DNA of 52,949 bases from Thermodesulfovibrionales bacterium (lineage in GTDB: Bacteria > Nitrospirota > Thermodesulfovibrionia > Thermodesulfovibrionales > UBA6898). This document shows positions 46,201 through 52,187 of the stretch, piece after piece; within the stretch, counting starts at the first letter, position 1; each line of letters opens with the position of its first letter. A program made the position numbers. The stretch covers positions 1 through 52,949 of the forward strand of contig JBIOIY010000012.1 in NCBI GenBank assembly GCA_044450345.1. The letters run 5' to 3'.

Positions 46201-49200
46201 TCGGTGCAAACCCCTCAGGTATTCCGCTATGAAACGCTATATGATGCATATGAGCGGGCCGCGAAAGACTCTTTTAGCTCTACGGACGACTCTGCGCTCG
46301 TTGAGAAATACGGCGGCAGGATAAAGATGGTGATGGGCTCCTATAAAAATATCAAGATCACTACCCCGGAAGATCTGAAGATGGCTGAATTATTCCTCGA
46401 AATGAGAGAAAATAAGGTGTGAGGATCGGGGTTGGCTACGATTCCCACAGGCTTGTCCCGGGCCGGAAGCTCATTATAGGCGGGGTCGAAATCCCGTTTG
46501 AAAAGGGCATGGGAGGACATTCCGATGCCGACGTGCTCTGTCATGCGATCACCGATGCCGTCATAGGTGCTCTCGGTCTTGGTGATATCGGCACCCATTT
46601 CCCTGATACCGATCCGAAATGGAAGGACGCGGTGAGCATCGAACTTCTCAAATATATCATAGAACTGGCTAGGATGAATGGCTTCCGGGTGGCATGGGTG
46701 GACACGACGATCATCGCTGAACGACCTAGGCTCTCACCGTATGTTATTCAGATGAAGCAGGCGCTTTCCGGAAGCGGCATTCCCGCCGGTGCCATAAACA
46801 TCAAAGCGAAGACCAACGAGGGCATGGGATTTACAGGGCGCGGCGAGGGCATTGCCGCCTATGCGGTATGTCTGCTCGACAAGGTTGATAAATGAAAAAG
46901 AGGAGGTTTTGATGGACATTGTCGGAATCTTTAAGGAAAGTGTCGAGGTATCGAAAAAGAATTATATAATTTTTGCGCCGACTGTGGCGGTCGCAGTAGT
47001 TATGTCAGTCCTAACCCTCATCCTCGTAGGCAGCGGTGTCCTCTCGATTGGCCTCATGGGGGGCGGGATGCATTCCCCCGGGGGGATGATGCCGCTGATC
47101 GGGGCAATGATGGGCGGGCTCTTTATCGTCGCTGTTCTCGGCACCATACTCGGGCTCATTGCACACGGCATGACCGTGGGGATGGCTAGGGAGGCTATTG
47201 AAAAGGGGTCCACCTCCCTTAGCAGCGGATTCTCCGTCGCAATGGGCCGCCTGGCGCAGTTGGTCGTCGCATCGACACTTGTGGGGATAATAGTTTTTGT
47301 CGGTTTTATGCTTCTCTTTATTCCCGGTCTTATCGCGGCATTTTTCCTGATGTTCACCTTTGTCTCGGTCATTGTCGACAATACCGGCGCGGTCGAAGCG
47401 ATGAAGAAGAGTTATGCGACGGTTAAGACGAACCTGAACGACTCCATAGTATTCTTTATCGGCATGATAGCTGTCGGGGTTGTCTTTGCGGTCGCAAATG
47501 CGGTCCTTAACGTAATCCCGATACTCGGACAACTGCTCGGCATGGCACTCATAGGCGCCTTCGGAGGATATATTTCGGTGGTGATCGTGAAGGTGTATTT
47601 GGAGCTGACCAAGGGCACCTGATAGAATTATATATTCTCTGCCCGAGCAGACCCGCCCGTCGTGGCTTGGCGCTCTCGTTTTTTTCTTCTAAAACTCAAG
47701 CAGCAAACATTCCCGCTATGCAAAGGGGGTCCTCCAAGTCAGCAGTAGATCATCTTCTTCGTCATTCCGCCGTCGACAATAAAATTTGCGCCTGTGATAA
47801 AAGACGCCTCCTCCGAGGCGAGATAGACTATGATCGATGCGATATCTTCAGGTCTGCCGACCCTTCCCGCCGGATGTTGTTTGTGGTCGGCCTCAGTGAG
47901 TTTCGGCCCCTGCCTCACGCTTTTCTTTTTCCAGTTCGATACGTCGATCCATCCCGGGCTGACGCAATTCACCCGCACGTTTGGTCCGAGGCTCATGGCA
48001 AGGGCGTGGGAAAGGGCGAAAATGCCGCCCTTAGACGCAGAATATGCTTCAGTATCGGCCTCGGACATGAAGGCGCGCGTTGAGGCGACATTGACTATTG
48101 TCCCTCTGCACTCCCTGAGATATGCAGCGAAGTGCTTTGCACAAAGGAAAGTGCCCGTGAGGTTCACCGAGATGATCCTGTTCCATTCCTCGATAGAGAG
48201 TTCTGCGACCGGCCTGCTGAGAAAAACGCCGGCATTGTTTACAAGGAGATGCACCCGCTCGTAATTTCGCCATGTCTCCTTCGCCAGACCCTTTACATCC
48301 GCCTCCTTAGAAATGTCAGCGCGCAGGAAAAGGATCTCCCCGGGACACGCAAACTCCTCGACAGTTTCCTGTCCCGCTTCCTCATCGATGTCCGCGATAA
48401 CTACCCTCATCCCCTCTGATATAAGCCTCTTTGCAACTGCCTTGCCTATGCCTTGAGCACCCCCCGTGACTACGGCCACTTTGCCCTTGAGAGCCATTGT
48501 CGCACCTCCTTGCCGATCATGCGGAATAATCTTCATCTAAAGTGTATCAGCAAATAGAGGCAGACGGAATGTCCTTGGACCACAAGGCCTGCAAGAAGGG
48601 GAAGACGTATTTCGACAGAGAGGTCTGTCAAGGCCGCTGCTTTATTTCTTCTATAGCCTCCCCGATGATGAGATTGACGTTGGGGTCACTATCGTTGAGC
48701 CGTTTTTCGAGAAAAGGCAGCGCACCCTTATCACCGATGATGCCGAGTATGTTCGAGACGTCTCCGCGAATAACAGGGTTTTCATGATCGAGAAGAGGCA
48801 ATAAGGGTGGGACAGCAGCAGGCACGTTGGGGGCATCGAGCACGCTGAGTTCTTCCATCAGCGCGGTCACGCCTATCCTTACTCTCACCCTTTCGTCTTG
48901 TATCAACTCCCAGACAAGACCGTAGAGTTTACTGTCGTGCCTGAACATATCGACAATATTTTCGAGAAAGCCCTTTTCCATGTAGTCGGCTATCATGGAC
49001 ACGAGGCTGCTGTCGGCGCCGCCAGTCTTATTCATGGGTTACTATAACGCGACGTAACAAGGGAGGACAAGGGCGGAGTTGTTGCTGTGCGGGATAAGTA
49101 TTCCCCCGCTCTTTCGCTTTTCTTTAAAATTCCCAACACCGTACGGACGGTTTTTTATTGTATAATAAAGACTTAAGTGGACAATATGGGGTTCTTGGGC

Positions 49201-52187
49201 AATATAAGGCGTGACTACAAGGCTGTCTTTGAGAGAGATCCGGCTGCAAAGAACGGTCTCGAAGTTATTCTTGCATATCCCGGCTTCCACGCGATATTCT
49301 GGCACAGGATCAACCACGTGCTCTGGGAGCTTGGGATACCGGTAGTCCCGCGGCTTTTATCACATATTGCACGTTTTCTTACCGGAATCGAAATTCACCC
49401 TGCTGCAAAGATAGGCCCCGGCTTTTTCATCGACCACGGTATGGGAGTGGTGATCGGAGAGACTGCGGAGGTCGGCGAGAACTGCCTTCTTTACCAGGGG
49501 GTGACCCTCGGAGGGACGGGCAAGGAAAAGGGCAAGCGTCATCCGACGTTGAAAAACAACGTGGTTGTCGGGGCTGGCGCGAAGATACTGGGGGCGATAA
49601 CGGTCGGGAATAATGTTATTATAGGGGCCAATTCCGTCATCCTGAAGCCGGTCCCGGACAATGCGATCTGTGTAGGGGTGCCGGGGAGGATTACGAGGAA
49701 GAAGATCCTCAGGATGACGACAGATGACGGGATGGTCGAGGTTATGGATTATTTCCCTGATCCTGTCATAGAAAAGCAGAAGGAACTCGAATCACGCATC
49801 GATGAACTTACGAAGAGACTCGACAGCGTCGAAAGGGCGAAGGATAGAGGAGGACGGATGAAGATCTATAACACCCTTACCGGCAAAAAGGAGGAATTCA
49901 TGCCGGTGGAGCCGGGAAAGGTCGGGATGTACGCCTGCGGCGTCACGGTTTATGACCATTGCCACATCGGCCATGCGCGGTCCGCTGTGGTCTTCGACGT
50001 TATGCGGAGGTACATGATCTACAAGGGGTATCAGTTCAAATACGTACGTAACTTTACCGACATCGACGATAAGATCATAAACAAGGCTAATAAGGAAGGT
50101 GTTACCTGGGACGCCATCGCGAGGAAATATACGGATGAGTATTACAGGGACATGGACTCCCTCGGCATCGGAAGGGCAGACGTAGAGCCGAAGGCAACGG
50201 ACCACATCAAAGAGATCATTGAGATGGTGAGTGGCCTTGTCGAAAAAGGATATGCCTATGAAATCGACGGCAGCATCTACTTCGAGGTATCGAAGTTTGC
50301 GGGCTACGGGAAACTCTCAAAGAGAGACCTTGAAGATATGATGGCCGGCGCCAGGGTTGAAGTGGACGAGCGAAAGAGAAATCCAATGGACTTCGCCCTC
50401 TGGAAGGCCTCGAAAGAAGGCGAGCCGGTATGGGAGAGCCCCTGGGGGCCGGGCAGGCCCGGCTGGCACATTGAATGCTCGGCTATGTCCCGGAAGCATC
50501 TCGGCGAGACCTTGGACATACATGGGGGCGGGGCTGACCTCATCTTCCCTCACCACGAGAATGAGATAGCACAGTCGGAGGCGTATACCGGGAGGCCCTT
50601 CGTAAGATACTGGGTCCATAACGGTTTTATTACGGTAGATAAGGAGAAGATGTCGAAATCCCTCGGCAACTTCTTTACCATACAGGAGATACTTAATAAG
50701 TTCGATCCCGAGGCCGTAAGGTTCTTTCTTCTTTCTACGCATTACAGGAGTCCTATCGAATTTTCAGACGAGCAATTGAGGGAGGCCGAGGCGTCTATAG
50801 ACAGATATTATACGACGGTCCTGAGGATCAGGGAGTTCCTTTCACAGGACGGCGCGAAAGAAAAAACAGCAGTTGATGAGAAGGCCCTCGAGGACCTCCT
50901 TTTGAAATTCGTCGAAAAGTTCAAGGAAGCTATGGACGACGATTTCAACACTGCGCTTGCGATCGGCAATGTCTTCGAACTTATCAGAATGCTCAATAAG
51001 TACATGGACGGAAGGCCTTCCGGAAGCAAGGCCATCGGACTCATAAAAGAGTCCGGTGAGTTCCTGAAAGAGACCGGGAACGTCCTCAACATCTTCACCC
51101 GGACCCCCGAGGAATGGTACAAGGCCCTCATGTCCGTCAAGAATATTGGACTTACCGAAGCGGACATCCTCGTCAGGATAGACGAACGGAAACAGGCACG
51201 AGAGAGGAAAGACTGGGCCGAGGCCGACAGGATAAGGAAAGAACTCGAAGAAAAGGGGATTTTACTTGAAGACAGGAAAGACGGGACGGGGTGGAAAATC
51301 AAGATCGCATGACGAATGGATCTACGGACTTAACCCTGTCCTGGAAACCATAAGGTCAGGCCGGCAGGTCAAAACAGTATTCCTTTCCGCGTCCAGAAAA
51401 GAGGGGATCGCCGGAATAGAGAGGGAGATACTGTCCAGGGGCATTGTGCTGAAAAAGGCCGACCAGTCTTTTTTCGACAGCAGGTTTCCGAAAGGCCATC
51501 AGGGCGTTGCCGCTGTGGTTGCACCGAGGGAATACGCTGAGTTGGAAGAACTGTTCAAGGTGCCTCCTTTGAATAATGAGACCCCTTTTTTTCTTATCCT
51601 GGACTGCGTAGAAGACCCGAGGAACTTTGGTGCGATCTTAAGGACGGCAGATGCGGGCGGAGTTCACGGCGTTGTTATCCAGTCGCATCGGTCTGCAACA
51701 CTGGTGCCCGAGGCGGTAAAGGCCTCGGCAGGGGCCGCCGAATACATACCCGTGGCGATGGTAGCCAACGTAAAGCATGCGATGGCCGGGATGAAGGAAG
51801 CTGGAGTTTTGGTGGTGGGCGCAGAGGCAGGGGCGAAGAAGACGATCTGGGATCTCGACCTGAGTGTTCCCTTGGCGCTGGTGGTCGGGTCCGAAGGCAA
51901 GGGGCTGAGAAGGACGGTGAGAGAGGACTGTGACGTGCTGGTGAGCCTCCCTATGAAAGGGAGGGTGAATTCCCTCAACGTGTCTGTTGCTGCGGCTGTT
52001 ATGATATATGAGGTAATCCATCAGAGAATAAGAAAAACGTAGCTTTTTAGAGCAATGATACTTTTTCCCCTGATAGTCCTTGTTTTTTTACTATTGACCG
52101 CGGTATAATATTTTCTTTATATTATTTAGTTCTGAAAAGTCCATGGCGAGCTGTTGTCTTTTCTGAGGAATGCCACCGTAGCTCAGT

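Follow-up and report, generated by a model that had tools for sequence, protein, structure and literature searches.

The genes cysE and cysS, for serine acetyltransferase (CysE) and cysteinyl-tRNA synthetase (CysRS), are read as one frame in a contig of a Thermodesulfovibrionales bacterium (JBIOIY010000012.1, assembly GCA_044450345.1), of which we analysed a stretch of 52,949 nucleotides, here called the window. This raises the question whether the fusion is genuine and which products such a gene may give. A first-pass annotation had proposed that the gene gives a CysE-CysRS protein with a coiled-coil linker, coupling cysteine synthesis to tRNA charging, and in addition free CysRS from a start retained at Met225.

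Results

Organisation of the locus

Translation bore out the single stop-free frame, and the Shine-Dalgarno (SD) sequence and the ATG described for Met225 were both located (Table 1). A Pfam re-run reproduced the domain coordinates given earlier for the two parts, with SATase_N at residues 6-37, Hexapep at 119-153, tRNA-synt_1e at 238-535, DALR_2, and CysS_C at 667-703. The fused protein scored 241.2 bits with TIGR01172 (cysE; cut-off 210.65) and 583.6 bits with TIGR00435 (cysS; cut-off 340).

Table 1. Features of the fused cysE-cysS gene and its flanks (positions in the window)
Feature	Position	Strand	Remarks
Whole fused frame	49186..51312	+	708 aa, 80.3 kDa
Product from internal start (predicted)	starts 49858		484 aa, 55.8 kDa
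Short-type serine acetyltransferase core, residues 1-175	49186..49710	+	TIGR01172 above cut-off; catalytic Asp18, His84
Native C-terminal tail of short CysE	49711..49842	+	variable segment, invariant Asp-Pro 192-193, helix 193-219
Internal Shine-Dalgarno AGGAGG	49848..49853	+	overlaps Gly222-Gly223 codons
Cysteinyl-tRNA synthetase, residues 225-708	49858..51312	+	internal ATG at 49858; TIGR00435 above cut-off
-10 box TATAAT, likely cysE promoter	49161..49166	+	10 nt before in-frame GTG (49177), 19 nt before ATG (49186)
rlmB-type SpoU methyltransferase	51266..52042	+	probably co-transcribed with the fused gene

PIN-TRAM, ispD and ispF lie upstream and rlmB downstream, the only near start of rlmB being a TTG 47 nt inside the cysS end. 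A cysteine synthase gene was found on another contig of this genome, and 117 of 121 genomes of the order contain one. At the Rfam gathering score, positions 46000-52949 gave only four tRNAs, with no T-box or other element upstream of the gene. In two metatranscriptome runs the fraction of words recovered was 0.08 and 0.06; at 80% likeness only short pieces were found, none of them over 49770-49886, and they are thus uninformative on junction, start and level. The searched supplement files of a metaproteome paper on a fusion-bearing relative (file 3 lay outside the search) showed no row for cysteine, cysS or cysE.

Distribution and history of the fusion

We sampled 121 genomes of the order, spreading the sample evenly over its families. 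The junction of cysE into cysS was stop-free in 88 of them, so that the open frame reported earlier for 34 of 41 genomes holds in the wider sample. The remaining 33 comprise 28 unfused genomes, three left unassigned and two in which the junction is intact and the gene is broken or cut elsewhere. The sole genome of another order of the class also has a stop-free junction, as do 45 of the 46 named records of the class in which cysE adjoins cysS, a set that overlaps the 121 genomes. All 120 protein matches listed are 682-724 aa long and cover 93-100% of the query. The open junction in 88 genomes rules out an assembly artefact; these genomes span 12 families at 58-82% identity. Judged from sequence, the fusion is real, old and common in one bacterial class, within a large group of sulfur-cycling bacteria.

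Among 115 genomes from other classes, none yielded the fusion. When a profile of residues 1-400 was run against 1.84 billion representatives, the best 150 matches included one of full span, P0122; fusions inside CysRS clusters could be hidden in such a search of representatives. P0253, with a CysE piece and a CysRS piece, looks frameshift-ridden and was not accepted as an independent fusion. A match across the junction in a Planctomycetales locus (L224) turned out to be two separate genes 78 nt apart, and long open frames upstream of cysS in two further genomes (G125 and G143) are not CysE. GenBank and JGI names mostly hide the fusion as plain cysteine-tRNA ligase. In the literature that we searched, no description of a CysE-CysRS fusion was found.

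On a CysRS tree (all trees were built with FastTree only) the fused state has to change five times, and stand-alone CysRS branch from within the fused ones, which suggests repeated reversion to free CysRS. In two unfused relatives cysE and cysS overlap by ATGA. A CysE tree, from which seven long-type rows were left out, did not separate three adjacent but distinct genes into split-off and never fused ones. Lineages that lost the fusion have a long-type CysE beside cysK, or no CysE above cut-off was found in them.

The two enzyme parts

The CysRS part is complete, including the anticodon domain, and Foldseek aligned it to E. coli CysRS (1u0b) with a TM score of 0.91. Its HIGH and KMSKS motifs and Cys251, Cys431, His456 and Glu460 are conserved in 86-88 of the 88 fused genes and identical in alignment to 1li5. 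The latter four residues, which we take to be the zinc ligands responsible for cysteine selection, are present in 87-88 of 88. In one genome (G140), the fused gene is the sole CysRS above cut-off and has no internal start nearby, and the fused CysRS is likely to be active.

Full-length CysE chains in the PDB align from their residue ~80 onwards, so the N-terminal ~75 residues are absent in the fused CysE. The catalytic dyad of E. coli CysE consists of Asp92 and His158 (PMC13040420). By alignment offsets, which assume a 16-residue tag on 1t3d, these correspond to Asp18 and His84, kept in 86 and 88 of the 88 fused genes, respectively. By these residues, both active sites are intact.

AlphaFold2 predicted a helix at 193-219 with low pLDDT; the linker had a pLDDT of 41-64. 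A trimer model of residues 1-330 placed heptad contacts at 194-219 between the copies, as in a three-stranded coiled coil. It scored 0.87, compared with 0.00 for the best control, with a run agreement of at least 33% and a pLDDT of at least 68; the result may reflect memory of solved CysE trimers. Of 30 solved pairs, 20 reached the mark, as did 1 of 23 single chains. The helix is a predicted coiled coil, but the same tail ends the stand-alone CysE of relatives, so it is a native CysE tail and not a fusion-specific linker. Between the cysE start and the CysRS start lie 215-230 codons, a nearly constant distance, and the C-termini of the fused proteins vary. Since the CysE tail runs on into CysRS, no C-terminal Ile is free for the classical complex with CysK (cysteine synthase).

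The two probable translation starts

Neither the GTG at 49177 nor the ATG at 49186 is preceded by an SD sequence, the anti-SD pairing being 0 and -3.0 kcal/mol. Among 83 relatives, 62 have a -10-like hexamer 5-14 nt before the cysE start, compared with 1-10 in shifted windows. In this genome the box lies farther from the ATG than in most relatives, and a two-hexamer promoter scan did not list the site at 49161. From the -10 box and the missing SD, transcription probably starts near the cysE start codon, and the long form would be translated from a near-leaderless mRNA.

Because the 16S tail was not found in this genome, the anti-SD sequence was taken from G016. With it, the internal AGGAGG pairs at -10.1 kcal/mol, the best value among the 20 in-frame ATGs scored in this gene. 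Pairing of -6 kcal/mol or stronger was obtained for 76 of 88 internal starts, compared with 160 of 1250 other in-frame ATGs and 2 of 85 cysE starts. The spacer to the ATG is short (4 nt); 2 of 6 stand-alone cysS starts in family f10 have an equal one. Gly222 is encoded by GGA in 61 of 69 cases, the top value among 55 Gly columns, and ranks second of 579 columns in a codon-bias scan, behind a Ser column. Gly-Gly pairs begin with GGA in 90% of cases at the internal SD and in 19-32% elsewhere. At the level of codon usage, the internal start is under constraint.

Codon 225 is ATG in 74, TTG in 7, GTG in 5, GTA in 1 and CTG in 1 of the 88 fused genes, i.e. a start codon (ATG, GTG or TTG) in 86; in each of the two exceptions a further in-frame GTG with SD pairing lies close by. 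Of the 88 genes, 54 keep GGAGG and 72 have some SD 4-mer. The earlier count of GAGG or GGAGG plus ATG in 22 of 22 loci therefore describes the majority and not a universal rule. In four families the pairing is weak (median -6.3 kcal/mol in f2, -3.8 in f3, -5.8 in f4 and -1.1 in f12), so the two-product scheme is not universal. Where the codon stands for Leu, it is TTG in 7 of 8 cases, whereas each of the other 26 shared Leu columns has TTG in 0-2 of 8. Two observations weaken this argument: TTG is an ordinary Leu codon here in 6 of 24 stand-alone CysRS, and in family f4, 8 of 27 Leu columns share one codon in at least 6 of 8 genomes. Other Met columns of the fused proteins are as well conserved as Met225, and none of these counts is independent, since the genomes are related.

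Discussion

Our data are best explained by a real and old fusion that keeps both ancestral start sites, and we consider it rather probable that a trimeric fusion and free CysRS arise from one mRNA. A promoter just before cysE would give an mRNA with little or no leader, as the -10 box and the missing SD suggest, and initiation at the SD-less 5' start would yield the 708-aa CysE-CysRS. The fusion may trimerise via its beta-helix and native coiled-coil tail, as modelled for residues 1-330, and an acetyltransferase trimer would then carry up to three CysRS units. The strong internal SD and start codon would direct synthesis of a free 484-aa CysRS, presumably the more abundant form. The idea of two products from one gene agrees with the codon-level conservation of SD and start, but in some lineages the internal start is weak or lost. 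O-acetylserine would diffuse to the unlinked cysteine synthase; hence, the gain would be fixed co-expression and tethering. The proposed coupling does not hold as direct channelling, as the cysteine synthase gene lies on another contig and CysRS keeps its cysteine-specific zinc ligands. Most simply, an overlapping cysE/cysS pair would have been joined by a frame-joining change, a step that is easily reversible because the internal start is kept. Several lineages would then have lost or split off cysE. In a few others the internal start has instead become weak or disappeared, and these seem to depend on the fused CysRS.

The two products might also be of no benefit. If the stop was lost in an overlapping pair by a nearly neutral accident, the internal start would give almost all working CysRS and the appended CysRS would be a passenger. 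The ATGA overlaps, the repeated loss of the fusion and the strong internal beside the weak 5' start fit this reading, which accords with the two-product mechanism and differs on benefit only. We regard it as unlikely: one nonsense change would free CysE, yet the junction has stayed open across the families, and some genomes have neither a good internal start nor another CysRS above cut-off. Conversely, the fusion could be the sole product, with the SD-like sequence kept for a ribosome pause during CysE folding or for a Gly-Gly hinge, and Met225 as a structural hydrophobic residue. The residue of E. coli CysRS that matches position 225 is Leu2; in G140 the codon is CTT, with no in-frame ATG, GTG or TTG within -25..+5 codons, and the SD is weak in four families. 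On the other hand, a hinge does not need GGA in particular, and in stand-alone CysRS with a start farther upstream this position is filled by Ile or by Leu codons that are not start codons, with ATG in 0 of 41 (0/17 and 0/24), whereas none of the 88 fused genes has Ile. Fusion protein as the only product is thus an unlikely reading.

A regulatory role was also considered, in which the tethered CysRS signals cysteine or the charging of tRNA-Cys to the acetyltransferase via its feedback tail and replaces a T-box at the protein level. In CysE, the C-terminal tail plays a part in feedback by cysteine and in complex formation (PMC13040420), the Rfam search gave no T-box or other element upstream, for which a near-leaderless mRNA would leave no room, and the linker length is nearly fixed. 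As the linker is modelled with low confidence and the fusion was lost several times, such a role appears distinctly improbable. A bolder form, in which the CysRS units of the trimer act as a charging-state sensor that tunes the rate-limiting acetyltransferase through the coiled-coil tail in place of a T-box, and the balance of leaderless and SD-led initiation sets sensor-enzyme against free synthetase, is speculative and quite unlikely. Finally, the fused synthetase might receive O-acetylserine, whose conversion would take place on the tRNA, similar to the SepRS-SepCysS transsulfursome. Only the adjacency of the two activities speaks for this; no search was aimed at SepRS or SepCysS, but with the zinc ligands intact and cysteine synthase nearly always present, it is hardly credible.

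A synthetase is usually linked to the supply of its amino acid through RNA leaders or operons, whereas in this fusion the two are joined covalently, an old arrangement that is common in one class. The fusion lends itself to asking whether flux is regulated or channelled when a synthetase is tethered to a biosynthetic enzyme. If both starts are used, leaderless and SD-led initiation would compete naturally within a single frame. Moreover, a kept internal start can make the fusion of an essential gene reversible.

Comparison with known systems

In Bacillus, cysE-cysS is under T-box control, and Gagnon et al. reportedly described the co-transcription of gltX-cysE-cysS in Bacillus subtilis in 1994. 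PIN-TRAM, ispD, ispF and rlmB presumably surround these genes there. The locus studied here has the same pair in the same order, a short-type CysE and the same neighbourhood; it differs in being one frame instead of two, in having what seems to be its own promoter with little or no leader, and in that no T-box was found.

In a truncated CysE isoform of S. aureus and M. tuberculosis the first ~75 residues are likewise missing and the Asp/His dyad is kept; it has a long C-terminal helix and a predicted trimer with a helical coil (PMC13040420). The fused CysE has the same short N-terminus and dyad, and models suggest a similar helix and trimer, but its tail continues into CysRS and leaves no free C-terminal Ile. 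The words 'fusion', 'fused' and 'Nitrospir' do not occur in the main text of that paper.

In infB, clpB, mrcB and arcB, in-frame initiation at an internal SD and start codon gives an N-terminally shortened product (bioRxiv 10.1101/520783). The conserved SD and start codon inside the fused frame, read here from sequence alone, resemble these cases, although this internal start appears to be inherited from a formerly separate essential gene, the two enzymes are unrelated and the signal at the 5' start is the weaker one. The transsulfursome SepRS-SepCysS-SepCysE physically links cysteine synthesis to tRNA-Cys charging (PMC8762117). The CysE-CysRS fusion would be a similar physical link, but with a canonical class I CysRS, with a separate cysteine synthase and with no indication of a tRNA-bound intermediate.

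Results

As the first-pass annotation had proposed, cysE and cysS form a single uninterrupted frame, whose residues 7-168 and 225-704 pass the cut-offs of the curated family models TIGR01172 (cysE) and TIGR00435 (cysS), respectively. The gene is the sole full CysE and the sole full CysRS of this genome. Catalytic and motif residues (Asp18, His84, Cys251, Cys431, His456, Glu460, HIGH and KMSKS) are kept in 86-88 of 88 fused genes, and on sequence both active sites are intact. An AF2 model (61-row alignment, pLDDT 84.8) predicts that the CysE beta-helix is followed by an ill-defined stretch, a helix spanning 193-219 and the CysRS fold; with this model, Foldseek retrieved E. 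coli CysRS (TM 0.91) and CysE chains (~1.1 Å rmsd).

Features of the fused locus and related positions
Feature	Location	Strand	Remark
Membrane protein, short-chain dehydrogenase, HEAT-repeat gene	46852-49035	last two minus	split ispD-ispF from cysE-cysS neighbourhood
Short hairpin with T run	49138-49151		just 5' of cysE -10 box, divergent gap to HEAT-repeat gene
TATAAT	49161		10 nt from in-frame GTG, 19 nt from cysE ATG
Fused cysE-cysS frame	49186-51312	+	708 residues, stop-free on translation
rlmB start region	51266-51320		no ATG near cysS stop
CysRS-like paralogue	contig C25 (L114), 1420-2634		404 aa, ~30% identity

The CysRS-like paralogue has a shorter C-terminus and apparently misses some zinc-site residues. 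Its neighbours, identified by eye, are probably a radical-SAM gene on one side and a MATE transporter on the other, and similar frames occur in several relatives. Downstream of the fused gene, rlmB has one near start, a TTG that lies 47 nt within cysS and shows SD pairing of moderate strength; such a deep-overlap start is the only one in 14 of 38 relatives in which rlmB comes next.

Among 121 genomes of the order, sampled evenly by family, cysE runs into cysS without a stop in 88. In two others the junction is intact but the locus is broken, or cut by the contig end, at another point; 28 lack the fusion and three were not classified. The unfused loci parsed came in sets of 20 and 9, the larger of which includes a second CysRS from a fused genome. 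In a 141-genome sample of the phylum, full-length matches were confined to the order and to G140, the only genome sampled from another order of the class; the other classes gave 0 of 115. Of the best 150 proteins matched by a profile of residues 1-400 among 1.84 billion cluster representatives, one covers the full span. On this distribution the fusion looks like a single-lineage feature, within limits set by the 50% clustering of the representatives. Close relatives that carry a name belong to the Nitrospirota, among them Candidatus Sulfobium and Thermodesulfovibrionales bins.

A point new relative to the first-pass annotation is that the 5' start of cysE is weak and probably near-leaderless. 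It lacks an SD (median anti-SD pairing 0; <=-6 kcal/mol in 2 of 85 loci). At 62 of 83 loci a -10-like hexamer stands 5-14 nt before it, and at 48 of these it reads exactly TATAAT. Five shifted windows gave 1-10 hits per 83 loci; among internal starts the figure was 1 in 88, and among other ATGs 30 in 1250. From this spacing we infer that transcription would begin at the start codon or a few bases ahead of it, and the comparative evidence for a near-leaderless start is good. Counted crudely over 1538 frames of the whole genome, such hexamers rise modestly in number 5-9 nt ahead of the first ATG (at 6 nt, 26 vs ~9 elsewhere), so that short leaders are present in this genome but a minority. A literature search for leaderless genes of the phylum turned up nothing relevant. 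Rfam elements in 46000-52949 were limited to four tRNAs, and the hairpin may be either a terminator or an operator.

The claim that an internal SD and ATG are retained stood largely for the start codon, with ATG, TTG or GTG at codon 225 in 86 of 88 fused loci (ATG 74, TTG 7, GTG 5; GTA and CTG once each), and only partly for the SD, with GGAGG upstream in 54 of 88 and an SD 4-mer in 72. Anti-SD pairing, calculated with the 16S tail of a relative (G016), reaches <=-6 kcal/mol at 76 of 88 internal starts vs 160 of 1250 other in-frame ATGs, and is weak in families f2, f3, f4 and f12. At the two loci with GTA or CTG, SD pairing is seen at other GTGs in the frame.

Discussion

Conservation at codon 225 could reflect the protein rather than the RNA: the residue corresponds in the alignment to Leu2 of the E. 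coli enzyme, and a hydrophobic residue is therefore needed there. We separated the two constraints by comparing codon use across alignment columns, although the counts come from related genomes and are not independent. Gly222 is GGA in 61 of 69 (0.88), whereas the median over 55 Gly columns is 0.20, no Gly column outside the junction exceeds 0.47 and other Gly-Gly pairs have GGA as first codon in 19-32%. At residue 225 itself, Leu is encoded by TTG in 7 of 8 cases (0-2 of 8 in 26 other Leu columns) and Val by GTG in 5 of 6, the highest of 26 columns. Stand-alone CysRS that start further upstream never have ATG here (0/17 and, counted from printed rows, 0/24), but mostly Ile or Leu, and Ile occurs in 0 of 88 fused genes. 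As counter-evidence, 6 of 24 such stand-alone CysRS use TTG here as an ordinary Leu codon, and in family f4 the same codon recurs in 6 or more of 8 genomes at 8 of the 27 Leu columns. Altogether, the comparative evidence that the internal start is maintained is good, and for most lineages these controls speak against an incidental ATG. Two loci, L191 with an in-frame stop and L084 with a frameshift in the cysE half, keep the internal start intact; each may be an assembly error or an early fission step.

The frame, its conservation and the start signals are shown by sequence and partly support the proposal of two products, the products themselves being our reading of these signals. A single short-leader mRNA would serve both starts, the weak 5' start giving an 80.3-kDa, probably trimer-forming CysE-CysRS fusion and the strong internal start a 55.8-kDa free CysRS (computed masses), the free form probably being the more abundant. 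In G140, position 225 is CTT, with no ATG, GTG or TTG from -25 to +5 codons, and no CysRS of this genome other than the fused one passes the cut-off, which suggests that the fused form can charge tRNA. The proposed coupling of cysteine synthesis to charging has to do without direct hand-over between the fused sites, since the cysteine synthase step lies between them; this enzyme was found in 117 of 121 genomes and is unlinked to the fusion here. Any benefit would lie in fixed co-expression and tethering, and the boldest reading, a tethered CysRS acting as sensor, seems improbable to us.

On the CysRS tree (FastTree, 138 rows) the fused state needs 5 changes, likewise forced by starred branches. 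Stand-alone CysRS nested inside fused clades are those of f12 (G100, which is fused, excepted), G011 and some members of f3, while for f10 loss and a never-fused state are equally parsimonious. In two unfused f3 genomes cysE and cysS overlap by ATGA, an arrangement that can give the fusion by one frame-joining change, or to which the fusion can return. G011 and several f12 genomes have a long-type CysE beside cysK instead. Five other unfused genomes (G023, G118, G078, G040 and G059; three of them single-contig) have a cysteine synthase and no CysE above cut-off, implying another O-acetylserine source or another substrate. The fused genome G058 carries a second, stand-alone CysRS (contig C19, L103) with ATA at the start position, which groups with f12 through transfer or bin contamination.

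Annotation already meets the fusion protein, with a double JGI name on 2 of 120 listed matches and 'modular protein' on one. We found no description in the titles and abstract openings searched, subscription journals lying outside their scope, and a word search of the transsulfursome paper (PMC8762117) gave no match for acetyltransferase. The fusion of two ordinary enzymes is real, conserved and apparently undescribed.

A three-copy model of residues 1-330 (run agreement >=33%, pLDDT >=68) scored 0.87 vs 0.00 for the best control. Solved pairs attained the mark in 20 of 30 cases, single chains in 1 of 23. The copies are predicted to touch, among other places, at the beta-helix and along a heptad series at 194-219, with no confident contact to the CysRS part; as CysE trimers are already solved, the result may reproduce known structures. 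In family f16, the stand-alone CysE encoded beside cysS (L131, L134, P0125) are lengthened at the C-terminus by a charged, low-complexity stretch of 130-200 residues, and P0205 (495 aa; a single record, possibly an artefact) joins a short CysE to an apparent indole-3-glycerol-phosphate synthase (by eye). The coiled-coil linker described as the joint of the fusion did not hold up as fusion-specific. Its Asp-Pro and helix segment also ends the stand-alone CysE of relatives, and it is the ordinary tail of a short-type CysE. This C-terminal helix is described, together with a low-confidence helical coil in a predicted trimer, in the work on truncated CysE (PMC13040420).
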